DNA of 64,000 nt from Ignavibacteria bacterium (GCA_031261605.1 JAISJI010000064.1:209-64208), one strand, 5' to 3'. Positions 5,603 to 17,598 are shown, numbered from the stretch's first letter. Numbers and translations are program-made. The notes: generated by a model not told the origin, from the letters alone.

Positions 5603-6301
5603 ATGCAAAAAACTTTACTATTATTAACCCTATTTCTATCTGCCATCGCTCTTAATGCACAAGATGTTATGCTACTATACGATTTCGGCAGAGCCGGACA
5701 TCACAGCTACGAGGATGGACCGCATACCACCACTACTGTAGAAAACTTCTCTGCTGATAAGTGGGGCTCATCCTATTACTTTGTTGATATGTATTACAAA
5801 AGCAACGGAGTAAATGGTGCTTACTGGGAAATCTCCCGAGAACTAAAATTTTGGGATGCTCCCATATCCGCTCATATTGAATATAATGGTGGATTAAATC
5901 TCGGATTCCCATTTAACCACGCATATTTGGCGGGTGCTACCTATTCACTAAATAGCGATGATTTCAAACGTGGCATCTCTTTTACTGCAATGTATAAGTA
6001 TATCTACAAACAAGAGGAGCCACACAACTTCCAACTCACTGCGGTATGGCATTGGAACTTTGCTGATGGTCTATGTGATTTCTCCGGCTTTATAGATTTT
6101 TGGAAAGAAAAGCAACCGGGCATAGATGCCGATTTTGTTTTCTTATCCCAGCCGGAATTATGGCTAAATCTAAATCATATTTCCGGTGTTCCAAAGGAGT
6201 TCAATCTGAGTGTAGGAACGGAAGTAGAATTCAACTATAACTTCGCTTATGTTAAAGGATTCCACTGTTTGCCTGCATTAGGAGTTAAATGGACATTTTA
6301 A
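5603..6301 (+). CDS. DUF5020 / Tsx-like outer-membrane channel
   Basis: Signal peptide; YDFGR, TTTVE..DKWGS.Y.FVD, AYWEISREL, HIEYNGG; C-terminal KWTF beta-barrel signal. Confidence 0.8.
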   Translation: MQKTLLLLTLFLSAIALNAQDVMLLYDFGRAGHHSYEDGPHTTTTVENFSADKWGSSYYFVDMYYKSNGVNGAYWEISRELKFWDAPISAHIEYNGGLNLGFPFNHAYLAGATYSLNSDDFKRGISFTAMYKYIYKQEEPHNFQLTAVWHWNFADGLCDFSGFIDFWKEKQPGIDADFVFLSQPELWLNLNHISGVPKEFNLSVGTEVEFNYNFAYVKGFHCLPALGVKWTF

Positions 6302-6329: not shown

Positions 6330-6707
6330 ATGCCACTTGCAGATGATTTGATTTTGAAAAATAACGAGCTGCAAAACCAAAATGAATTATTGAATAATGA
6401 AAATGAAAAGTTGCGCAAGCAAATTGAAGAGTTGAAAAAAACAAACGAAAGGTTGAATAAAAAACTTCAAGATATGACCAATAAATGCAATATCGTAAAA
6501 GCAAAAAATAAAGATGCTTCCAAAGAGATTGAGAAGTTAATTGTGGAAAAATCAGCTTTGTTTATTTCAAATGATAAACTGAAGGATGAATTAAAAGTTT
6601 TGAACGAAAAGTATATTGCGTTGGGCGAAGAAAGCGCTCTAATGTTTATTGAATTAAAGAAGCTGAATGAAATAGAAAATGAAGAATACAATATATTCAA
6701 ACTATAA
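6330..6707 (+). CDS. hypothetical coiled-coil protein
   Basis: 125 aa, heptad pattern rich in L/E/K/N; AAGGAG Shine-Dalgarno upstream. Confidence 0.6.
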   Translation: MPLADDLILKNNELQNQNELLNNENEKLRKQIEELKKTNERLNKKLQDMTNKCNIVKAKNKDASKEIEKLIVEKSALFISNDKLKDELKVLNEKYIALGEESALMFIELKKLNEIENEEYNIFKL

Positions 6708-6759: not shown

Positions 6760-6833
<74 letters not shown>

Positions 6834-6856
6834 ATCCTAACTAATAAAAGCGAACA

Positions 6857-6864
6857 CAAAATTA
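6857..6864 (-). promoter_or_regulatory. -7 promoter element TAATTTTG for tRNA-Arg
   Basis: TAnnTTTG match 24 bp upstream of the tRNA, preceded by an A-tract. Confidence 0.55.
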
Positions 6865-6894
6865 ACACTTTTTTCCCAATTTACAAAACTTTTT

Positions 6895-7863
6895 CTATTT
6901 TTGCTCTATTTTTCTCTTATGCACTAGCAAACATCTATTGACAATGTTCTCTGCTGTAAAGCCAAAATGCCTCATTAATTCATCTGGCTCGCCACTTTCT
7001 CCAAATCTGTCTTGCATTGCAATCATCTCCATAGGAACAGGATACTTCCCTACCACAACCTCTGCAACTGCACTTCCTAATCCACCATAGATTTGATGTT
7101 CCTCTGCGGTAACTATCGCTCCACATTTCTTAGCATAAGCACTGATAGTATCCGCATCTATCGGCTTTATTGTATGGCAATTTATTACAGCAACATTGAG
7201 ATTATATTTTGTTTCCAACTCCCCTGCTGCCTGCAATGCTTCCCATACCAATGCACCACAAGCAACAATACAAACATCAGTTCCATCACGTAAAACATCC
7301 GCCTTGCCAATTTGAAAATCATCATCCGCATTAGTGAATATTGCTGTTTTCGCTCTACTTAGTCGTATGTATGCTGGACCTATATGCTCTGCAACTGCTA
7401 TTGTTGCCTTCTTTGCTTGCTCGTAATCGCACGGCACAACTATTGTCATATTGGGCAAAGTCCGCAGTAGTCCTATATCCTCAAGACATTGATGAGTAGC
7501 GCCATCGGGACCAACAGTAACACCAGAATGACCGCCTGCTATCTTAACATTAGCATTATTGTAGCAAACGGAAACGCGTAATTGGTCGGCATTACGAAAT
7601 GTGGCAAACGCTGCATAAGCAGAAAAGAAAGCAACTTTACCCGATAATGCAAGCCCTACCGCTATTGTGGTAGCGTTCTGCTCTGCTATACCAACCGATA
7701 TAAAGCGTTCCGGATGCTTCTCCGCAAAGAAAGAAGTCAATACTGAACCTGTAACATCAGCACCAATAACTACTATACGACTATCTTTATCGCCTTGTTC
7801 AGCCAATGCTTCGCCAAATCCTTGACGTGTAGGTTTTGTTCCTTTTGATATATATTTATTCAT
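6895..7863 (-). CDS. transketolase, C-terminal (pyrimidine-binding) subunit
   Basis: TRQGFGEAL, GIAEQN, GPDGATHQ, EEHQIYGGLGSAVAE. Confidence 0.93.
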   Translation of the reverse strand: MNKYISKGTKPTRQGFGEALAEQGDKDSRIVVIGADVTGSVLTSFFAEKHPERFISVGIAEQNATTIAVGLALSGKVAFFSAYAAFATFRNADQLRVSVCYNNANVKIAGGHSGVTVGPDGATHQCLEDIGLLRTLPNMTIVVPCDYEQAKKATIAVAEHIGPAYIRLSRAKTAIFTNADDDFQIGKADVLRDGTDVCIVACGALVWEALQAAGELETKYNLNVAVINCHTIKPIDADTISAYAKKCGAIVTAEEHQIYGGLGSAVAEVVVGKYPVPMEMIAMQDRFGESGEPDELMRHFGFTAENIVNRCLLVHKRKIEQK

Positions 7864-8743
7864 TGTTTGTATCCTCCAATTCTTTTAATGCTTCCTCTGC
7901 TTGCGCTATTGTAGGTGGATTGCCGTGCCATTGATATTTATCGTGCATTAGCGAAATTTCATTACCCATAATAGTTTTGGCGATTATGCAAGTCGGTTTG
8001 TTGATTTTATTTTTATGATTTGCATTAAACTGCTCATAACCCGATATTACTTGCTCTACGTCATTTCCATTAAGTTCAATAACAGCAAAACCAAAGCTTT
8101 CAAACTTCTCTTTCAGCGGGTATATGGACATCACCTCCTTTACCCTGCCATCTATCTGGCAATCATTGTTATCTACAATCCAGCAAAGGTTATCTAAATG
8201 ATGCATACTTGCAGACATTGCCGCTTCCCAGCAACTTCCCTCTTGCAACTCGCCATCACCAGATAAACAGAATACCTTATGCGAATTTTTATCTATCAAT
8301 TTATCGCTCATAGCCATTCCAACGGCTATTGATACGCCTTGACCAAGTGAGCCGGTTGTGGTCTCAATACCAGGAGTAAAGCCAAATCCAGCAGGATGCC
8401 CTTGCAGGCGTGTTCCCAATTTACGCAAAGTCGCAAGTTCGGACGTAGGAAAATATCCGCAATGTGCTAAGCAAGAATATAAGACAGGGACGTAATGTCC
8501 GGGACTTAATATAAACCTATCTCGCTCCTTCCAAGTAGGATTAGTAGCGTCATAACGCATAACTCCACCAAAGTGCAGAACAGCCATTAACTCCGCTATA
8601 CCTAGTGCACCGCCGGGATGACCCGAACCTGCAAGTGCCAGCGACTTCAATATATCCCGCTTCAACTCTTTGGTTATTGCTGCATAGTCATCCGGCTTGC
8701 GTTGCTCGTTTGAAAAAATAATATCGTTAAACGAAAAACTCAT
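7856..8743 (-). CDS. transketolase, N-terminal (TPP-binding) subunit
   Basis: SGHPGGAL, RDRFILS.GH, LQGHP, TGSLGQG, GDGELQEG..WEAAM. Confidence 0.93.
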   Translation of the reverse strand: MSFSFNDIIFSNEQRKPDDYAAITKELKRDILKSLALAGSGHPGGALGIAELMAVLHFGGVMRYDATNPTWKERDRFILSPGHYVPVLYSCLAHCGYFPTSELATLRKLGTRLQGHPAGFGFTPGIETTTGSLGQGVSIAVGMAMSDKLIDKNSHKVFCLSGDGELQEGSCWEAAMSASMHHLDNLCWIVDNNDCQIDGRVKEVMSIYPLKEKFESFGFAVIELNGNDVEQVISGYEQFNANHKNKINKPTCIIAKTIMGNEISLMHDKYQWHGNPPTIAQAEEALKELEDTNNE

Positions 8744-8858
8744 TTGCTCATAATTTTGTGATTAATAAAGCCCTAAAATTACGACTTTTTTATGAATATA
8801 TTGTCTATCGAAGGACATTTTGTGGAAAAAAGTAGAATGCCGAATTTTGATGTTCAGT

Positions 8859-10811
8859 TTATTTTGATTTGGAAATGCGATTAGCAATTTGCTCAGTATC
8901 CAAAATAAGGACAGTTTTATCTCCATACTGTGCTGCTCCCAACGAATATGGAACTTTGGATAATACACCGGTAAGCCGTTTTGGCGAAAGCATTGCATTC
9001 CCCACTACATCATCGCAATACAATTTATATACTTTTTTTTGCAATGAAAAAAGCACATATTTACTATTATGATTTTTTTTATTAGAAACTGGCAACTTGC
9101 TATTGAAAAGGTGTGCTAAATTTGCTGATGGGCAATATTTATTAATGTTTTTAGTTGTAATCTGCTCAGAAGAATCAGGCAAAATGGCGTAATAATTAGT
9201 ATCTGCTTTCAAAACCAAATAGTTACACAAACAATTCTCCATCTGAAATCTAAACTTTATTACGTTTTCCTTAGCATTATTGAGGAATACACGACCACCA
9301 GCCGACTGTGCAAATTTAATTGTATCTTTTAATAATTTTATCTGCTGATTAACCAATGACTTACGTCCATTATCAGTAAAAATTAATTCAAAAATACCGG
9401 AATGCGAACTTATATAAATATTTATAGATTGTTGCACTATCTTGTTGTTTTTCATATCGTTATCGCTATATATATTACAAACTATAATATGCCGTAAAAC
9501 CGTAGGTATTATCGTTTCAAAAAGCGACCATAAATCAGCAGTCACCATTACGTTAATGCCTGATATTTTTAGGGTTACAGATTTATTAACCGAATCAGCA
9601 ATTGCTTCTACATACTCCTTAATGCCAATAGTAAAATTAGAAAATGGCTTAGACCTCAACTCATCAATTTTTTCATAAATATTTTTTGAGAGCATAGAAG
9701 CATTAGCAATAGTATCAGATATTTGATTAGATAAAGATTGCAATAACTCCTTATTTTTATCAATATTAGCAACAATATTTTCAAGAATTTTAGACGGCAA
9801 ATTGGTAGAAATATTTTTAATTAAGTCATTTAATTGCAGTGGAATAGCATTAATATCACGATAAATATTATTTGAAGACAGAAGTAACTCATTTAATTTT
9901 TGTGATTTAAATAAAAGAAACGATATATCATTGTAATTTATAGTTTTATTAATTGAAATTGCTCTATCAGCTTCATTTGATTGTAAATTAGATATATTTT
10001 TAATAGAATTATTATCTGTAAAACTATTTAACATATTAATATAATTGTCTATTACATCAAATTGATTTACTGCTCCATCAAATACTTTCACCGAACTATC
10101 ATTAGCAATTTGCTTTAAATCATTTGCGGTTTTCTTTATGCTATTAATCTGCTCATTTGATAAAGTAACAGTGTTATTTCTTGATAACTTAACGGAATTT
10201 TCGAGCATTGTTATTAGTTGCGAAACCTCTTTTAAGTCAAATTTTTGCGTTTCATTATTATTATCAATTTTTACTTCACGCTCGGATGGAATAAAAGTAT
10301 TGATTTGATTGATATTATTAGAATTAACACCTATTTGATTAGAAATATTCTCATTATTTTTATCTATAACATTGTATTTATTAGTATTTATATCATCAAA
10401 CTTGAGATATGATGTTCTCTTTAACAGAGACAAATTTCTAGTAATTTGCTTACTTAATTCAATATAAATGTTTGCAATATCATTAGTTAGAAACGATAAT
10501 TCAGAAATATTATTGTAATTTATAGTACAAGTATTTGATAATAAGTCAGTTATATTAAGCAGCAAATCAATATCATTAACATTTAAAATTATTTCTCTCT
10601 CAATAGCAGCAGATATTATAATTATCAATTCATTAGTAACTCCCAATATATTCTTTAATTGAAAATATTTCCGCAATTTTTCTATAACAATACGCAACTG
10701 CATACGCACAGATTGTAATAATTCGGTCTGCGGAAATGCTTCAAAATCAAGAATAAGCATCTCAATTTTGCTCAAAATTGGAATAATATTAGTTGTGCTA
10801 TCTATTGTCAT
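8859..10811 (-). CDS. degenerate CheA/WspE-like protein (Hpt-like, HATPase-like, CheW-like P5), catalytic motifs apparently lost
   Basis: IISAAIEREIILNVNDIDLLLNITDLL (Hpt helix), RSKPFSNF..KSVTLKISG (P3/P4 junction), FTDNGR (G1-like), LGAAQYGDKTVLILD (P5). Confidence 0.65.
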   Translation of the reverse strand: MTIDSTTNIIPILSKIEMLILDFEAFPQTELLQSVRMQLRIVIEKLRKYFQLKNILGVTNELIIIISAAIEREIILNVNDIDLLLNITDLLSNTCTINYNNISELSFLTNDIANIYIELSKQITRNLSLLKRTSYLKFDDINTNKYNVIDKNNENISNQIGVNSNNINQINTFIPSEREVKIDNNNETQKFDLKEVSQLITMLENSVKLSRNNTVTLSNEQINSIKKTANDLKQIANDSSVKVFDGAVNQFDVIDNYINMLNSFTDNNSIKNISNLQSNEADRAISINKTINYNDISFLLFKSQKLNELLLSSNNIYRDINAIPLQLNDLIKNISTNLPSKILENIVANIDKNKELLQSLSNQISDTIANASMLSKNIYEKIDELRSKPFSNFTIGIKEYVEAIADSVNKSVTLKISGINVMVTADLWSLFETIIPTVLRHIIVCNIYSDNDMKNNKIVQQSINIYISSHSGIFELIFTDNGRKSLVNQQIKLLKDTIKFAQSAGGRVFLNNAKENVIKFRFQMENCLCNYLVLKADTNYYAILPDSSEQITTKNINKYCPSANLAHLFNSKLPVSNKKNHNSKYVLFSLQKKVYKLYCDDVVGNAMLSPKRLTGVLSKVPYSLGAAQYGDKTVLILDTEQIANRISKSK

Positions 10812-10812
10812 A

Positions 10813-11319
10813 CTATTTTATATTTAGCTCTATTTCATTGAAAATACTAATTTCATTTATTAAATATATTGATTGGGAATCATAATTAATTACTTTAGAA
10901 ATATGATTAAATTCTTTTTTTTCATAATTTTCGAAAGGAAGTTTAATTTTTGAATATTTAAATTTATTATCATCAATTAATATTAATGCTTTCTGATTTC
11001 CTTTTAATATTTCCAAAAGTATTTTATTTTTATGTCTGTTAGGTATATTTATGATAGAATTAATATCTATAATATTAGCTAACTCATTGTCAAATAATAT
11101 AAAACCAAATAATGAATTGCCAGCATCAAAATATTGAAATATTGATGGATAATTATTTCTAACTGCGCCTACATTTGTCAATTTAATGGCAAAATCAATC
11201 CCATCAATACTAAAAATTAATACATCTAAATATAATATATTATTAGTAGTTACTTCTGATTTTTTTGCAGCAACAGATAGCTTGGTTGGGGCATTTTCTA
11301 TAAATGATATAATTTTCAT
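10813..11319 (-). CDS. degenerate CheW-like protein
   Basis: LIFSIDGIDFAIKLTNVGAV...GFILFDNELANIIDINSII CheW pattern; lies between the MCP-like and CheA-like genes. Confidence 0.6.
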   Translation of the reverse strand: MKIISFIENAPTKLSVAAKKSEVTTNNILYLDVLIFSIDGIDFAIKLTNVGAVRNNYPSIFQYFDAGNSLFGFILFDNELANIIDINSIINIPNRHKNKILLEILKGNQKALILIDDNKFKYSKIKLPFENYEKKEFNHISKVINYDSQSIYLINEISIFNEIELNIK

Positions 11320-11329
11320 AACTTTATAT

Positions 11330-12934
11330 TTATATATTATTAGTAGTATTTAACAATAATTGTTGTTGTAAACTTATTGTAATTTTAATATTATCAATTA
11401 CTTTTACAATATTAATATCATTATTATCTATTTTATTTTTATCTATTATAGAATTAATAAATCTATATTGCTCAATCATATTTACAGTTTTATTATTTAA
11501 TGAATTGACCAATAGCAGCAATTCATTTAATCTGTTGTCATTCAATTGGTTACACAATATTGCAACATTAATATTAATTATATTTATAAGTATTTCAATC
11601 CCATTTATACTATCTTCTAACTTACTTATTCTATTGATGTTAGAATAAATAAGTTGATTATTATTTTCTAACTCTATAATAGCAGAATTAATTTTTTCGA
11701 AATCATTTATGTCAATTTTATTTGATAATTTCATTAATTCCGTAATCGTATCAGTCGCATCTTTATTTTTATTTCTATAATTTTTTTCTTTAGTTTCTCC
11801 CGCTCTATGAACTATGTAACTTTCAATATTATATATAAATTTCTCGAAGGTATTTATATTCCGCCACATAAATATATTAGGACGAGATTTAATATTAAAT
11901 ATTATTTTTAAGTTATTGCCATTATTATTAGTAACTAAATTATTTTCTATTCTTAATAAATTATTTATAACGTTGTTAGACCTTGAAATAAATAGTTTTA
12001 CTATTAATAGTGCGATAATTATTATCACTATAATTGTGCAACTTATTGAAATTATTGTTTTTATATCGTAATTAGCAAATAAATAATCTGATTTATATTT
12101 TTCACTTTTTGCAATTATTAGCAAATCCAATCCTTCATAATATATTTTCCCTATGCAAACAGATGAATCTTTTTCTATGTTTATATGTCCATTTATCATT
12201 ATTTTTGTATTTTCTAATAACTGGTTGATTCCATTATATTTATTTTTAGAATTAAATACATATTGCTTATTTGTATAATCCAAAATTGAAACTTCTCTAA
12301 CTCCTTCTATATAGTCAGTTATCTTTATAAATTGGTTCATTGGTATTAAAATTACGGTTACTCCATTTAACTCGCCATTTGCATTGTGATTGCCACTATA
12401 TGATATTATATATAGGATATCTTTAAATTTAACTAATCTATTAACTATTTGATTATACTTGAGTTGCGATGAAATTTTGTAATTATTCTCAAATATTTCA
12501 TCTATATATTGGGAAATCATATCTTTAAGAGAATTGTTATTGATTGATGTAGTAATTAAATTGCTTTTATTGAGTATATTTTCTATTGAAAACAGTGCAT
12601 AATGATAAGCATATCCATCATAATTTGCAGCATTATTTCCGTAAAAATTATCTGTTATCTCTTTATTTTTTAATATATTATATGAATTTTGCGATATTTC
12701 TTTGTGTATTTTTACCGTAAGTGCATTAATTGTGAATTGGATGGTCTTAAATGTATTATTTAATATTTTTATATCATTGCGGACTCCAATCTCTGAATCT
12801 GCAATTTCTTTTTCCTTTACGGCTTTTTCTATACTATCAATTTTTCCTGAATACGATAATTCAAATCCAATGAAAGCCAGAATGATTATTACGACTGTAA
12901 CGGGGATAAATATTTTTTCTAATTTTACTTCCAT
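11330..12934 (-). CDS. degenerate methyl-accepting chemoreceptor-like membrane protein
   Basis: N-terminal TM, about 260 aa extracytoplasmic domain, second TM, coiled-coil tail with IEILININIINVAILCNQL resembling the TNLLxLNAAIEA hairpin. Confidence 0.55.
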   Translation of the reverse strand: MEVKLEKIFIPVTVVIIILAFIGFELSYSGKIDSIEKAVKEKEIADSEIGVRNDIKILNNTFKTIQFTINALTVKIHKEISQNSYNILKNKEITDNFYGNNAANYDGYAYHYALFSIENILNKSNLITTSINNNSLKDMISQYIDEIFENNYKISSQLKYNQIVNRLVKFKDILYIISYSGNHNANGELNGVTVILIPMNQFIKITDYIEGVREVSILDYTNKQYVFNSKNKYNGINQLLENTKIMINGHINIEKDSSVCIGKIYYEGLDLLIIAKSEKYKSDYLFANYDIKTIISISCTIIVIIIIALLIVKLFISRSNNVINNLLRIENNLVTNNNGNNLKIIFNIKSRPNIFMWRNINTFEKFIYNIESYIVHRAGETKEKNYRNKNKDATDTITELMKLSNKIDINDFEKINSAIIELENNNQLIYSNINRISKLEDSINGIEILINIININVAILCNQLNDNRLNELLLLVNSLNNKTVNMIEQYRFINSIIDKNKIDNNDINIVKVIDNIKITISLQQQLLLNTTNNI

Positions 12935-12982
12935 ATCTAACTCTCTGAAATATAATTTGTTATACTAATTTATGTTATTACT

Positions 12983-13000
12983 ATGCAAATATCGTGCCAA
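12983..13000 (-). promoter_or_regulatory. sigma-54 (RpoN) -24/-12 promoter TTGGCACGATATTTGCAT
   Basis: Matches YTGGCACG-N4-TTGCW with GG-N10-GC spacing, about 50 bp upstream of the 12934 start. Confidence 0.8.
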
Positions 13001-13116
13001 GTTCTTACAAATTTTATGTGGAAAAATTTATTGTTATATTTAAATTTTGAAATGTTTTTTATTTGCAAATTATTAGTATATTGCGTTTCTTAATTACGCT
13101 TTATAATTAAATTTTT

Positions 13117-13470
13117 ATGAAAAAAGAGCACAAAAAAGCAAATTTATTAGAACTTACCCCTATACACTTACTTACGCATGAATATAGAGCCGATGGCGAA
13201 ATTGATGTCCTCGTTCCTCGCTTTAAGCATTCTGTGTTTCAAAAAATATTGCCAAAGCATCGCAGCCCATATATAAAGGCGAATTTGGATGAACTTGGCA
13301 CTGCTACTTGGGAACTCATTGATGGAAAGCGGAATGTTACGGAAATTGCAGAGATGATGGTAGAGAAATATGGTGAGCGTATAGAACCTGTGCATCAGCG
13401 AGTTTCGGCGTTTATGCAGCAAATGTATCGGAATAAATTTATTTCATTTGTGGAATTTTCGGAAGATTAG
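13117..13470 (+). CDS. PqqD-family (RRE-like) protein
   Basis: LDELGTATWELIDGKRNVTEIAE...RVSAFMQQMYRNKFI. Confidence 0.8.
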   Translation: MKKEHKKANLLELTPIHLLTHEYRADGEIDVLVPRFKHSVFQKILPKHRSPYIKANLDELGTATWELIDGKRNVTEIAEMMVEKYGERIEPVHQRVSAFMQQMYRNKFISFVEFSED

Positions 13471-13485
13471 AAATGCTATTTTCAA

Positions 13486-16400
13486 CTACTCAACTATTAC
13501 GAACTTGCAATAGGTAACATCTCCCCCGCCATTTGTGTTGTTGGTAGCGCGAATAATATATATTCCGATACCACAAATATTGCCATTATTATCACGCAAA
13601 TCCCATTCCGTTCCTCCATTGCCATCGTATTCATCCAATGTGCGAAGCAATTTTCCTGCAATACTCTGTATTTCAATTTTTGCATTATGCGTAAGATGCC
13701 CAATGTATGCGGTGCTATGCGTAGAGAGGCGTATAGGACTTGGATAGACGTAGATTTTGGATAGCGAATTTGTGGCTAATGTAAAGCCGAGAGTATTGCC
13801 AGCACCAGCGGTCATCTTACGACCGGAGAGAGCCATTATATCTATATTTGCGGTTATTAGATAGTCCTTGCCTCGTGCCTCCAATTTTAGATTACCAGAT
13901 AAATCTATACGCAATTTATCCGTTGCAAGTATTGATATATCTGCTATTTCGCCATAAGGAGCAAGTTTATAATTAGCAATATGCGTTGCTGTGTATGTGT
14001 CTACCGCTTCGGAAAATGTGATGTATAATGTTGCTGGCGGTGCATATATTAGCGAAGTGAGGTATAGTTCATCGCTATGGACATTGCTTACAATTACTTG
14101 TAAAGTATCGGAAATAGTAGGATTGCCGTAGTAATCTGTAATTGAACTTGCGAGCAAATAGTATGTTCCATCTTCCAAATCCTCAGCGAATACAAGTGCT
14201 ACGGAGGAATCTGTAATTAGTGAGAGGCAACTAATTGGAGAAATATTCCGCTCCAATTTTTTAAGTAAAAAACTTCCTGCTTCAATATTCATCTGCAAAC
14301 GCTCGCTATACTTGACTTTCAGCAGATTGGTATTTAGCATTGTCGCTATAAGTGGCTTTGTAATTGGCTTTGTGGTTATAGTAACTATCTCGGAGAAGTA
14401 GTTTGTTGTTTGTAATTTCACATAAGAGGTGTAATTGGTATTCGGCTGTAAATCGTTGATGTCAGCGGTGTTGTTGGCTGTTTTGTATATTGTGAAAACG
14501 GAACTTGGATTGGATAACTCGCTTGTTTCTATTATCCACAATTCGTATTCTGAGTTCTCCACTTGCCTCCATTCAAAATGTGCAGCAGTGCTAGAAATAG
14601 CGTATCCCTTGAAGTATGCGACTTCTGAACCAATTTTGTAGTCAGGAACAAACTCGTAAAACTCGGTTTCCCCGAATGTTGTAAAGCAAATTTCATTATC
14701 TCCATTCTTATCAAAATCGGCAATAACCACAGCGTTTGTATTATTCGCAGGATACGACCACATAGGCGAAAGTTGCTTGGTATCAGCATCCCACTTCAAT
14801 ACATACAAATTTGGGAATGTTGCAATTACTACTTCATCGCCAGCAATTCCATCTATATTACCAGTATGAACAGCGTTTCTCATAGGTGAATAATTTCGGA
14901 CCCCCCAAATATCATCTTCAAATAATTTTGTGATGCCATTGTTATTGGCAGAGAAAACTTGGTATGTCCATAGTTCTGTTTTTCCAAGTATGCCCGATAC
15001 ATCATTGATTTTACCATAAGATAGATATATTATTTCATCCCTTCCATCATTATCAATATCTCCGGCTGTGATTGGTATTTGCGTAAATGTCTCTCTGTAA
15101 TATGGATAATCCAACTTGTAGTAATCCTTTACAACGGCTTGGAATCCGCTAACATCAACGATGAGCAGATAATTATTTTGAGCGGTAGTTAGAGCAAGAT
15201 AGTTTTTCCCATCGCTATAAAAATTTCCAACTGCAACACCATTTCGCAGTGCATATTTGCCGGTATCAATGCCATACATAAGGTCATTAATATTTGCTTG
15301 CAGGAGTAATTGATACTTATCAGCAACGTAAGAATAGATGTAGAACGAGTTCCAGTTGTCGCAAAATAGAATCTCGTCTTTGCCGTCTCCATCAAAATCA
15401 AATAGCCCTTCGCAATACATTGCATCGTAGTTGGAGGTAGAAAATATTTGGTTGCTAAACTGGGACTCCCCCGCTGCTTGCGGTTGATAAAGAGCACTGT
15501 TGCCATAGTATCCAGTCATTATTTCTAATATGCCATCTCCATTGGAATCGCCAATGCCTTGTGCGTATCCGTTAGATTGGCTGCTATCTACTGCTACTAT
15601 TGCTGTATCATCTAATTTGTAAATGTATAACTTGCCTACATCATCAATACTAAATGGGCTTGCAAGTATTTCATTATCACCGAAAGTGGATTTGTATAAA
15701 TAAGATGATGCAAATGAGTATGGCTTTTTAGTAAAGGTGTAGGAATCAAAATGGTCGGAGCGTCTTCTAAATTCAAATGGCTGGCGCGCTACCAATTCTG
15801 TAGTTGGCACGTATGCTTCTACATATCCTTCTATATCCGTATCTATGGGAATATTCTCAACGGCGAGTGAATGATTATCGGTTATGTATTCATTAGATAT
15901 AACTGCGTGATAGTTTGTGTCAGCGGAATTTTTATCTTTGTAATATATTGTTGCGATGGTTGGAATATTTGTTTTTATATTGAACAAGGGAATACGATTG
16001 TCGTAATAATATGGCTGGTAAATTTCAAAATCTGTAATTTTAAGTAAAGTGGAATCCGTGCATAAGCCAATGTGAATTCGGTCTTCAAAGGTATTTCCAT
16101 TTTTCAAATTAAGTGTTAAACTAATGGTGTATGTTTCAATTTTGTCTTTGAGTTGCTTATCAAACAATGCCGTAGCAAGATTACATAGATGTCCGTCAAT
16201 GACTACCATTGACGATGGTGCAGAGATTGTATCCCAAGTTTTTCCATTTGCAGAAATTCGCACAAGCCACGTATCTATCAATGGAGTAGCCGTAGAGCCG
16301 GTAATAGTAATGGTATCGGTATGTGATAAATTTATGATGCTGTTGTGAAATGGTGTAGCGATTTCTATTTTTGTCTTTGCAATGTTCTGCAAAGCAGCAT

Positions 16401-17598
16401 AAGCATTCACTATTCCGGCACCATATTCAGGTGTCCAACCGTTAGCAACTTGCGTTGCGGTATTTTGGATTATCCCTTTTATATCAGTTGGTGTGAGTGT
16501 TACATCTTTCTCTAAAAGCATTGCTACAACAGCGGAAACAATAGGAGCGGAAAAAGAAGTGCCATTGTTATATGTCCATTCATTGTTCAATGTGGCGACG
16601 TAGATATTTGCACCGGGGGCAGTTATTGTTAATCTATCGCCATAGTTAAAAATACGGCGTTGTTGTTGGTCGCATCCGCCAACGGAAATTACTTCTGGAT
16701 AGTCGGATGGAAAGTGTGGCGTTGTCTTACCTTCATTGCCAGCAGAAGCAACAACAACGCAGTTCATAGCAAAAGCAAATTTAATTGCCGTATGCAAAAG
16801 CGGTGAGTCGTCATACTCGCCACTACTAAGATTTATTACATTTGCACCATTCAGAACAGCATATACAATAGCATTTGCTATATCTTTGCATTCGGAATTT
16901 CCAGATACATCGTGCGTCCGTAATGCCATAATTTTTGTATTTGGAGCAACACTTAGAACAACGCTTGCGACTTGTGTTCCGTGTCTATGCTCATCGTATG
17001 GGTCTGGGTCAGGAGTGCGAGTATCTCCTTGTATGATAACTGCTTTATTTATGAAATCATATCCAATTACATCATCTATATAGCCATTGCCATCATCGTC
17101 AATACCATTAATATCACCAAAGTCAAATATGCCATTGCCATTCAAATCTTCTAGTGGATTAACCCATAACTTGTTAGTAAATACGGAGTCGTTGTAATCA
17201 ATACCGGTATCCAACACAGCAACGACAATACCATTTCCGGTTGCTAACTTCCAAGCATCCATTGCTTTAATTGTAGTGAGATACCAGCGTTTTGTATCAA
17301 CTTGCGAAGTGGTCTTAGCTGTATCTATACTTAATATTGATGTCGGGATAGTGTGCTTGTGGTGTATGTGGGCTGGAACAATGTAATAGGATTGCAATTC
17401 GGAAAGCAGAAGTTGTGCTTGCGTAGGAATGTTTAGTTTGTCTAATTTTCTTGCATCAATTTTAACTACGGGTTCATAATTATCGCTAATATGCTCATTT
17501 GGGCTTAACTTAACAATGCAAACATCTGGTTTAGCAGATGCAGATAACATTGCAAGGAATAATAAAATTGAGAATATATGTGTAAGTATTTTTAGCAT
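13486..17598 (-). CDS. S8 subtilisin-family protease with FG-GAP/VCBS repeats, FN3/Ig-like domains and T9SS-like C-terminus
   Basis: VAVLDTGID, HGTQVAS, SAGNEG, GTSFSAP catalytic triad; DxDGDGxDEI repeats; VYPSP C-terminal domain. Confidence 0.9.
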   Translation of the reverse strand: MLKILTHIFSILLFLAMLSASAKPDVCIVKLSPNEHISDNYEPVVKIDARKLDKLNIPTQAQLLLSELQSYYIVPAHIHHKHTIPTSILSIDTAKTTSQVDTKRWYLTTIKAMDAWKLATGNGIVVAVLDTGIDYNDSVFTNKLWVNPLEDLNGNGIFDFGDINGIDDDGNGYIDDVIGYDFINKAVIIQGDTRTPDPDPYDEHRHGTQVASVVLSVAPNTKIMALRTHDVSGNSECKDIANAIVYAVLNGANVINLSSGEYDDSPLLHTAIKFAFAMNCVVVASAGNEGKTTPHFPSDYPEVISVGGCDQQQRRIFNYGDRLTITAPGANIYVATLNNEWTYNNGTSFSAPIVSAVVAMLLEKDVTLTPTDIKGIIQNTATQVANGWTPEYGAGIVNAYAALQNIAKTKIEIATPFHNSIINLSHTDTITITGSTATPLIDTWLVRISANGKTWDTISAPSSMVVIDGHLCNLATALFDKQLKDKIETYTISLTLNLKNGNTFEDRIHIGLCTDSTLLKITDFEIYQPYYYDNRIPLFNIKTNIPTIATIYYKDKNSADTNYHAVISNEYITDNHSLAVENIPIDTDIEGYVEAYVPTTELVARQPFEFRRRSDHFDSYTFTKKPYSFASSYLYKSTFGDNEILASPFSIDDVGKLYIYKLDDTAIVAVDSSQSNGYAQGIGDSNGDGILEIMTGYYGNSALYQPQAAGESQFSNQIFSTSNYDAMYCEGLFDFDGDGKDEILFCDNWNSFYIYSYVADKYQLLLQANINDLMYGIDTGKYALRNGVAVGNFYSDGKNYLALTTAQNNYLLIVDVSGFQAVVKDYYKLDYPYYRETFTQIPITAGDIDNDGRDEIIYLSYGKINDVSGILGKTELWTYQVFSANNNGITKLFEDDIWGVRNYSPMRNAVHTGNIDGIAGDEVVIATFPNLYVLKWDADTKQLSPMWSYPANNTNAVVIADFDKNGDNEICFTTFGETEFYEFVPDYKIGSEVAYFKGYAISSTAAHFEWRQVENSEYELWIIETSELSNPSSVFTIYKTANNTADINDLQPNTNYTSYVKLQTTNYFSEIVTITTKPITKPLIATMLNTNLLKVKYSERLQMNIEAGSFLLKKLERNISPISCLSLITDSSVALVFAEDLEDGTYYLLASSITDYYGNPTISDTLQVIVSNVHSDELYLTSLIYAPPATLYITFSEAVDTYTATHIANYKLAPYGEIADISILATDKLRIDLSGNLKLEARGKDYLITANIDIMALSGRKMTAGAGNTLGFTLATNSLSKIYVYPSPIRLSTHSTAYIGHLTHNAKIEIQSIAGKLLRTLDEYDGNGGTEWDLRDNNGNICGIGIYIIRATNNTNGGGDVTYCKFVIVE

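Follow-up and report, generated by a model that had tools for sequence, protein, structure and literature searches.

Introduction

Chemosensory systems are defined by the kinase activity of CheA. The closest published precedent that we have found for the locus described here is CheA3 of Cereibacter (Rhodobacter) sphaeroides. According to portions of the text of PMC10782961, CheA3 carries a hidden HATPase_c domain from which one helix is missing and in which the Mg/ATP residues have been lost, has extra Hpt-like domains that lack the His, retains P5 and is part of a working chemosensory cluster; its N-terminal Hpt domain keeps the phospho-His, which is phosphorylated by CheA4 from the same operon. 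A passage of PMC6829392 terms this protein a His-domain plus phosphatase domain. Here we describe a module of three genes, in the order receptor, CheW, CheA, within a 64,000-nucleotide stretch of DNA from an Ignavibacteria bacterium (GCA_031261605.1, JAISJI010000064.1:209-64208; the whole stretch is referred to as the window), in which the 650-residue CheA-like protein has lost both the ATP lid and the phospho-acceptor His of its Hpt domains.

Other published work also provides context. DivL of Caulobacter is a pseudokinase modulated by DivK, as stated in an excerpt of PMC12471899. A large survey, as summarized in parts of PMC10782961, found HATPase_c in every CheA homologue and identified CheAs by their matches to HATPase_c and CheW; because a search of this type requires both matches, it would miss the lid-less family described below. 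A limited literature search returned no description of a CheA family lacking both lid and His, only CheA3 and a general mention of pseudokinases. An earlier note on this DNA, made by inspection of the sequence, had proposed an intact but apparently catalytically dead Wsp-like operon encoding a methyl-accepting chemotaxis protein (MCP), CheW and CheA, and had left two options: a kinase-independent scaffold or pseudokinase signalling module, or an operon under relaxed selection in which stops have not yet appeared. Among the checks that it suggested were fold searches, complex prediction, ratios of nonsynonymous to synonymous substitution rates (dN/dS) and a genome search for other che and flagellar genes, and results of these kinds are given here.

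Catalytic and phospho-acceptor sites of the 650-residue protein

The most striking property of the 650-residue protein emerges from an alignment of 35 sequences, comprising 19 members of its family and 16 canonical CheAs. A block of ~44 residues that forms the ATP lid and contains the F and G2 boxes is present in all 16 canonical CheAs and absent from every one of the 19 family members. The block sits between the G1 box and the strand after G2, and in the window the deletion falls between Leu493 and Leu494 (nucleotides ~9332/9333). The earlier note had reported that no G2 box was visible, and the loss turns out to be larger than it claimed. Its two other observations on the ATP site survive proper alignment. 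The N box of the window protein, PTVLRHIIVCNIY (LRH...CNIY), aligns with canonical NHLLRNAVDHGIE and places His441 where the Mg-ATP Asn should be, an Asn that is retained only by G100, G101 and P0015 (genomes with G numbers are members of the window's taxonomic family, of which 130 were examined). The G1 box reads DNGRK and aligns with canonical DDGRG; across 26 sequences drawn from the family and from canonical CheAs, Gly482 never varies and Asp480 hardly does, and the window protein keeps both.

The phospho-acceptor sites have fared no better. At the phospho-His position of the first Hpt domain (LMRAAHSIKGAA) the window protein has Arg40 (VRMQLRIVIEK), a clade of relatives with normal guanine-plus-cytosine (GC) content, hereafter the GC-normal clade, has Asn, and P0016 has Lys; none of the 19 family members has His there. 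In the second Hpt domain the His is replaced by Asn in most GC-normal members (ALNTIKGAA) and is retained only in P0016 (AAHNLKGAA), the most distant family member, which scores as Pfam Hpt at E 3.4e-6. Throughout the window's own clade the helix that would carry this second phospho-His (~residues 170-190) has been lost altogether. The earlier note had claimed that both Hpt-like helices lack the phospho-His; it was right about the first, at Arg40, whereas the second motif that it cited, IKKTANDLKQIA, belongs to a late Hpt2 helix and not to the phospho-His helix. Its conclusion nevertheless stands. A functional CheA histidine kinase has a P1 His and an HATPase_c domain complete with N, G1, F and G2 boxes and a lid, and the window protein has neither. 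By alignment it is shown to be a predicted pseudokinase, one that should be incapable of using the standard ATP site and has no Hpt phospho-acceptor.

Descent from CheA

How can one be confident that such a protein comes from CheA at all? Pfam and NCBIfam models for Hpt, HATPase_c, CheW and H-kinase_dim do not match the 650-residue protein. The one Pfam match considered and rejected, to HD_assoc_2 (E 1.6e-5, residues 125-238), is compositional and falls in the low-complexity linker. A family profile built from the protein and its two 44%-identical relatives was more informative: all six of the sequences matched in a profile search of the PDB are CheA, the best being 2ch4_A, the CheA of T. maritima (E 1.2e-4; profile positions 511-648), in a match that takes in the end of P4 and P5. 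When 1.84 billion representatives were searched exhaustively with HMMER, 51 matched at E<=1e-3, of which 16 reached E<=1e-10 and 11 reached E<=1e-30; 22 of the 51 were scanned with Pfam. The stronger matches are family members, full-length or fragmentary, in which any CheW or Hpt signal is weak at best; the weakest 10 of the 22 all have HATPase_c, most also have Hpt and CheW, and four have a receiver. In other words, the family grades into canonical CheAs along the list of matches.

Structure prediction leads to the same place. The AlphaFold2 (AF2) model has a mean predicted local distance difference test score (pLDDT) of 76.1, with values of ~90 at residues 10-135 and 390-550 and below 50 at 139-191. 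Foldseek puts CheA P3-P4-P5 structures at the top of its matches (6s1k, 1.5e-16; 3ja6, 2.0e-15; 1b3q, 5.7e-15; ~400 columns), matches isolated CheA P4 structures with a template modelling score of ~0.68-0.70 and a root-mean-square deviation of 3.3-3.6 Å, and lists DivL (4q20) among the weaker matches. On the strength of the PDB profile matches, the predicted fold and the gradation into canonical CheAs, the 650-residue protein is a CheA descendant, collinear with CheA over Hpt-P3-P4-P5.

Each segment can be traced in turn. The Hpt regions are connected stepwise by hhalign: for Hpt1, the window's clade matches the GC-normal clade at E 1.4e-12 and the GC-normal clade matches Wsp-type Hpt1 at E 4.6e-17, and for Hpt2 the corresponding values are 8e-10 and 2.5e-15. 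The long helices at residues 293-385, which Pfam H-kinase_dim does not match, align to CheA P3 within the whole-chain Foldseek matches and are, from the model, a presumed dimerisation domain. The P5 assignment has the profile match and the fold match behind it, and relatives pass the Pfam CheW cut-off (27.9, 35 and 32 bits). Of six segments compared, the Hpt1-like bundle has the highest mean identity to members of the clade, at 44%, followed by the P4-like domain at 38%; across the segments other than the Hpt1-like bundle the range is 18-38%.

The lid-less family and its Wsp-type relatives

A full-length lid-less member (E<=1e-130) was found in 10 of the 130 genomes (G000, G002, G084-G088, G100, G101 and G106), and G077 has a short form of 527 residues, bringing the family to 11 of 130 genomes, spread over at least five genera. 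Another 400 genomes sampled across the phylum gave no match at E<=1e-60, and G001, a genome of the same genus that is 72% complete, yielded no member. A scan of metagenome contigs returned no relative of the module, and a scan of genome contigs returned one short contig, L006. This contig (WRMT01000359.1, 2619 nucleotides, 21% GC) carries a receptor-like open reading frame (ORF) that overlaps a pseudokinase gene, whose product is 33% identical to that of the window. L006 is filed in a Methanobrevibacter metagenome-assembled genome. Its chemosensory genes are of bacterial type and its AT content is extreme, so that this placement is probably a composition-driven binning artefact.

A tree of the 35 sequences (293 columns, lid columns removed, quick method) resolves the lid-less family as a single clade, with a Shimodaira-Hasegawa-like approximate likelihood-ratio (SH-aLRT) value of 100. 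This clade groups with the Wsp-type CheA-REC kinases (SH-aLRT 93), apart from the flagellar-class CheAs, and within it the window protein belongs to an AT-rich subclade of eight members (SH-aLRT 100) that have the same domain order throughout. Profile matches to Wsp-type relatives in the same bacterial family range from E 1e-50 to 1e-20. The Wsp-like affinity proposed in the earlier note is therefore borne out by the tree, as it is by one such relative in G089 that stands in a complete cluster, in the order MCP (Cache_3-Cache_2), MCP, CheW, CheR, CheW, CheA-REC, CheB, REC-PP2C; G016 likewise has a complete Wsp-type cluster, judged by ORF layout. The output gene of the G089 cluster (L034:5860-7056, minus strand) encodes a regulator of the REC-SpoIIE (PP2C phosphatase) type in place of a diguanylate cyclase, which suggests a partner-switching output, and in G016 a 425-residue ORF (L042:12249-13523, plus strand) occupies the matching position. 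A further Wsp-type CheA-REC homologue, at G136:C35:48448-49737 (L030), has two in-frame TGA codons within the match, which could reflect a disrupted gene, recoding or an error in sequencing. Wsp-type (second-tier) CheA matches occur in none of the 11 module-bearing genomes and in ~26 of the 119 others, a difference that is not significant, and related genomes are not independent. The module may have replaced a full Wsp-type pathway in the genomes that bear it.

Gene order is as well conserved as domain order. Receptor, CheW and pseudokinase follow one another in the window, G077, G084, G085, G087, G088, G101 and G106; the modules of G100 and G086 are cut by contig ends, and in G002 and L006 the receptor is followed directly by the pseudokinase with no CheW gene. 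All three genes of G077 are intact and similar in size to those of the window. In several genomes the module has a somewhat higher AT content than the DNA on either side, an effect that is strongest in the window and G077. In the GC-normal clade a convergent class II aldolase-like gene (193-194 residues; Pfam Aldolase_II E ~7e-7) always follows the module, for example at G002 L012:9818-10399 and G087 L033:10473-11054, with equivalents in G084, G085 and G088; its dN/dS is similar to that of the module, and there is none beside the window copy.

The host has a separate, canonical flagellar chemotaxis set in its assembly, which is 88.9% complete. The search for che and flagellar genes returned one full-length canonical CheA (contig C56) that has Hpt, dimerisation and CheW domains, with one CheR nearby, as well as two CheB, five MCPs and four CheW domains over the Pfam cut-off and six flagellin matches. 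No Wsp-type CheA turned up in the host assembly at E<=1e-10.

The CheW-like and receptor-like proteins

The order MCP-CheW-CheA claimed in the earlier note is borne out, and for the two smaller products the evidence comes largely through relatives of the window proteins. The 168-residue protein matches Pfam CheW at E 0.0019, with 18.3 bits against a cut-off of 23.5, and a word-index search with it returned only itself. By hhalign it matches canonical CheW at E 1.6e-4 and the small ORFs of the GC-normal modules at 1.7e-5; these small ORFs in turn match canonical CheW at E 1.4e-10, and those of G087, G100 and G106 pass the Pfam cut-off (29, 41.1 and 29.8 bits for G087, G100 and G106 respectively). 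By sequence comparison the 168-residue ORF is recognizably a diverged CheW, though the match of the window copy taken by itself is weak. Complex prediction for the P5-like domain with the 168-residue protein gave a score of 0.67, the best of three controls giving 0.01; of 80 solved complexes 58 come up to this mark, as do 2 of 110 mismatched pairs. Between runs, 82% or more of the contacts recur, and the pLDDT of the partner is at least 69. Because CheA-P5/CheW complexes have already been solved, this predicted docking indicates likeness to the solved interface (2ch4, 3ur1) rather than binding.

The 534-residue protein has a first transmembrane helix at residues 8-26, a periplasmic α/β sensor at ~27-293, a second transmembrane helix at 294-312 and an all-helical cytoplasmic part of ~222 residues. 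It matches no Pfam family, and a word-index search with it returned only itself. Its periplasmic part matches GC-normal receptors by hhalign at E 9.5e-7, and these match Cache_3-Cache_2 MCP sensors at E 3.4e-7, their own Pfam Cache scores being sub-threshold (8e-6 to 3.6e-5). On the cytoplasmic side, the GC-normal receptors can be aligned to MCP signalling domains over 187 columns (hhalign probability 95.3%, E 2.1e-8) with the tip in register, ISDHTYLIAVNSSIFAEK against IADQTNLLSLNAAIEAAR, and the G101 receptor reaches Pfam MCPsignal at E 4.9e-4, below the cut-off. The periplasmic homology to GC-normal receptors and the gene order tie the window receptor to the MCPs, so that its MCP identity is a probable one, reached by transitive homology.

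The hairpin signature of the window receptor was described as eroded in the earlier note, and indeed the window copy no longer matches MCPs significantly. What may remain of the tip is the motif INVAILCNQLNDNRLN, which is common to the upstream ORF of L006 (BLASTP E 4e-10). Asn456, the sole invariant column among 10 aligned receptors, falls on the Asn of the tip motif; the best hhalign paths, which are not significant, put INVAILCNQLNDNRLN on LSLNAAIEA of MCPs; and the low-confidence receptor model breaks its helix at 465-466. Every alignment puts INVAILCNQLNDNRLN at the tip position, and we presume that it is a remnant of the MCP hairpin tip.

Selection on the module

Are these genes maintained or are they decaying? 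In close orthologues, the three module genes are shown to be under purifying selection. Among G084, G085, G087 and G088, four species of one genus in the GC-normal clade, approximate dN/dS values lie far below 1, at 0.113-0.155 for the receptor (6 pairs), 0.057-0.179 for CheW (5 of 6 pairs, one being saturated) and 0.065-0.123 for the pseudokinase (6 pairs); four flanking control genes gave 0.048-0.146, 0.026-0.052, 0.022-0.038 and 0.046-0.074. For the least diverged pair, G085-G088 (synonymous divergence, dS, 0.28-0.46 by gene), the values are 0.155 for the receptor, 0.179 for CheW, 0.108 for the pseudokinase and 0.033-0.097 for the controls. Pairs with G086 have saturated dS and give no ratio.

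For the window copy, the reading frames themselves are informative. At the local composition the probability of a stop is 0.096 per codon, and the chance of a frame staying open is ~10^-28.6 over 650 codons, ~10^-23.5 over 534 and ~10^-7.4 over 168; over 300 shuffles the longest ORF was 144 residues, and the longest observed is 652. The three AT-rich frames are too long to be open by chance. The dN/dS of 0.06-0.18 in orthologues, the persistence of the family over at least five genera and the length of the frames together disfavour the relaxed selection that the earlier note had kept as its second option.

The locus and its neighbours

The ORF listing reproduces the three intact minus-strand ORFs of the earlier note, with intergenic gaps of 10 and 1 nucleotides and no internal stops. 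They lie in an AT-rich island (Table 1) with a GC of 0.22, compared with 0.38 genome-wide (2.33-Mb assembly, 75 contigs); GC at third codon positions is 0.12-0.22 in the three module genes and 0.29-0.38 in the adjoining transketolase genes, and of the residues in the three proteins, 34-42% are Asn, Ile or Lys. The island is no assembly chimera, since a single contig of run X1 covers 8249-15000 with no differences from the window and contigs of run X2, labelled termite gut metagenome, bridge the left (6789-11093) and right (12226-15000) junctions with even depth; either run may itself be the source of the window sequence.

Table 1. Features of the module, of the 650-residue protein and of the immediate surroundings (positions in the window)
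Feature	Position	Strand	Basis
Receptor-like ORF, 534 aa	11330-12934	minus	ORF listing
Conserved cytoplasmic motif INVAILCNQLNDNRLN, aa ~452-470	11525..11581	minus	presumed MCP hairpin-tip remnant
CheW-like ORF, 168 aa	10813-11319	minus	ORF listing
CheA-like pseudokinase ORF, 650 aa	8859-10811	minus	ORF listing
Hpt1-derived helical bundle, aa 1-135	10407..10811	minus	alignment, hhalign, pLDDT ~90
Low-complexity linker, aa 136-190, ahead of Hpt2 remnant		minus	pLDDT <50 at 139-191
Hpt2 remnant, aa ~191-285	9957..10241	minus	alignment, hhalign
P3-like long helices, aa ~290-385	9657..9944	minus	model helices 293-385, Foldseek
Lid-less P4-like domain, aa 386-525	9237..9656	minus	35-sequence alignment, pLDDT ~90
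P5 (CheW-like) domain, aa 526-650 + stop codon	8859..9236	minus	profile match to 2ch4_A
AT-rich island	8744..13116	none	GC ~0.18-0.33 vs ~0.37-0.49 in flanks
Split transketolase, neighbour of module	6895-8743		ORF listing + Pfam
PqqD-like gene, neighbour of module	13117-13470	plus, divergent	Pfam PqqD E 1.3e-10

The neighbours of the module are the split transketolase and the PqqD-like gene, and neither the ORF listing nor Pfam analysis of the neighbours revealed a CheY, CheR, CheB or receiver gene beside it, as the earlier note had also found. The PqqD-like product matches the lasso/ribosomally synthesized and post-translationally modified peptide (RiPP) PqqD models of NCBIfam below their cut-offs, and the gene is adjoined by a 1370-residue ORF (13486-17598, minus strand) that by eye has a subtilisin-type protease look, repeat domains and a C-terminal sorting-type tail; the two may form a RiPP or secreted-protease locus. 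Past the transketolase lie a tRNA gene (6760-6833, minus strand), which at ~2 kb from the island does not adjoin it, a 125-residue ORF (6330-6707, plus strand) that is nearly all coiled coil and has many weak coiled-coil Pfam matches, and a gene for a DUF5020 protein (5603-6301, plus strand, E 2.6e-88).

A promoter scan of the module was uninformative (47 sites, 43 expected), and the scan gave no terminator-like site at the module. For an empty-site comparison, the transketolase and PqqD-like genes are on separate contigs in G003 and G077, and in the same-genus genome G001 the transketolase gene has other neighbours; neither insertion nor deletion of the module is demonstrable from these three genomes.

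Interpretation

We consider that the module is a selected receptor-CheW-CheA core unit that cannot signal by phosphorylation and that descends from a Wsp/ACF-type pathway (ACF, alternative cellular functions), a reading to which we assign a probability of roughly 0.7. Its components would be a membrane-spanning receptor whose sensor is of the Cache type, a CheW of its own, and a pseudokinase derived from CheA in which two Hpt-derived bundles, the P3-like helices, P5 and a P4 without its lid persist. Receptor, CheW and P5 would still come together in the manner of a chemoreceptor array, and divergence of the tip/adaptor interface would have set the unit apart from the flagellar chemotaxis array of the host; a ligand at the Cache-type sensor would change the conformation of the pseudokinase, and output would occur by protein contact. 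The likeliest output element would be the His-less Hpt1-like bundle, a candidate because it is the best-conserved domain, which might be exposed or sequestered by the lid-less P4 as the receptor dictates and bind a partner encoded elsewhere. We hold any specific output mechanism with considerably less confidence than the general reading: that this is an array without phosphotransfer, evolved from a Wsp-type pathway, with a conformational, non-enzymatic output and an Hpt-derived bundle that binds its target directly, seems to us a tentative proposition, somewhat short of an even bet.

A number of observations weigh against a selected, non-phosphorylating unit. The conserved Asp480 and Gly482 of the G1 box leave room for residual nucleotide or ligand binding, CheW may be dispensable given the modules of G002 and L006, the genes beside the module differ between genomes, and no output partner emerged. 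For the receptor, the AF2 model has a mean pLDDT of 50.7 and is unusable, and the cytoplasmic part in the window is ~94 residues shorter than in the GC-normal clade and gives no significant match either to MCPs (hhalign E 0.5-0.6) or to the GC-normal receptors (0.06-0.45). As for selection, dS is near or above 1 in many pairs other than G085-G088, which makes dN/dS approximate; the ratios cover the GC-normal clade only and not the AT-rich copy of the window, whose DNA relatives are distant (G077 and L006 only) and for which the case for selection rests on open frames and conserved motifs.

What else might this module be? One might suppose that the pseudokinase is an accessory of the CheA3 kind that joins the canonical array or lies next to it and, under control of the receptor, serves as a sink for, dephosphorylates or binds a CheY-like regulator that is phosphorylated by the canonical CheA of contig C56. 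The host does have that CheA, the degenerate kinase domain of CheA3 working with CheA4 is a precedent (portions of PMC10782961), and the Hpt2 His kept by P0016 suggests an ancestral stage of phosphorylation in trans. The window protein, however, has no His at either Hpt site and so cannot accept phosphate there, its operon has no gene for a CheA4-like P3-P4-P5 kinase, no phosphatase motif was identified, and the presence in the module of a separate receptor and CheW, with a tip motif that has diverged, speaks for insulation and against mixing; we regard this account as unlikely. We think it quite improbable that the window copy is a decaying or recently transferred remnant, drifting with stops not yet acquired, while the family is perhaps functional elsewhere. 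The composition of the island and of its proteins, the lost Hpt2 phospho-His helix and disordered linker, the shortened cytoplasmic part of the receptor and the failure to find the family in the incomplete genome of G001 would all fit such a remnant, but at the stop frequency given above even a short period of neutrality would break frames of 534 and 650 codons. Moreover, the AT-rich clade has kept its domain order over eight members, with the mean identities to the window reported above for the Hpt1-like and P4-like domains, the three genes of G077 are intact and of similar size, and conservation of the tip motif extends from the window to L006.

The lid-less P4 might instead be a retained ligand pocket, binding a nucleotide or small molecule and integrating internal cues with external ones sensed by the Cache domain. 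The near-invariance of the G1 Asp and Gly noted above, and a P4 that is the second most conserved domain and confidently modelled, would be in keeping with such a role. With the lid and its F and G2 boxes gone, the N-box Asn gone in most members and the conserved Asp and Gly perhaps purely structural, we judge a ligand pocket to be a long shot. The selected core unit without phosphorylation is the preferred reading. A unit that has been selected after the loss of lid and phospho-sites suggests that array architecture is useful apart from phosphorylation, and a three-gene system of this kind could be used to study how receptor and kinase are coupled, separately from catalysis. GC-normal orthologues, for example those of G087 and G002, make expression and biochemistry look practical.

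Comparison with known systems

CheA3 resembles the window protein in being a CheA homologue with a degenerate kinase domain, Hpt-like domains devoid of His and a retained P5. The window copy differs in having no Hpt His, its operon has no second CheA-like gene, and the module is made up of its own receptor, CheW and pseudokinase and is of Wsp-type rather than flagellar-class descent. DivL is comparable in another respect, as a histidine-kinase homologue that signals by protein contact and not by phosphotransfer; unlike the window protein, it is of the HisKA type with an intact ATP-binding domain fold, is not derived from CheA and does not belong to a receptor/CheW module.

The nearest lid-bearing relatives are the Wsp/ACF-class systems, i.e. 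WspA-F with WspR and the G089 and G016 clusters with their REC-PP2C output. They resemble the module in having a pair of N-terminal Hpt domains and a receptor whose sensor is Cache_3-Cache_2, whereas the module lacks CheR, CheB, the second CheW, a receiver and an output regulator, and its kinase has neither lid nor phospho-His. Finally, when set beside the canonical core unit, as represented by the structures from E. coli (6s1k, 8c5v) and T. maritima (1b3q, 2ch4, 3ur1), the module has the P3-P4-P5 fold, a predicted P5-CheW interface and the gene order in common with it, and departs from it in that the catalytic machinery is gone, the receptor tip is eroded and the adaptation enzymes are absent.

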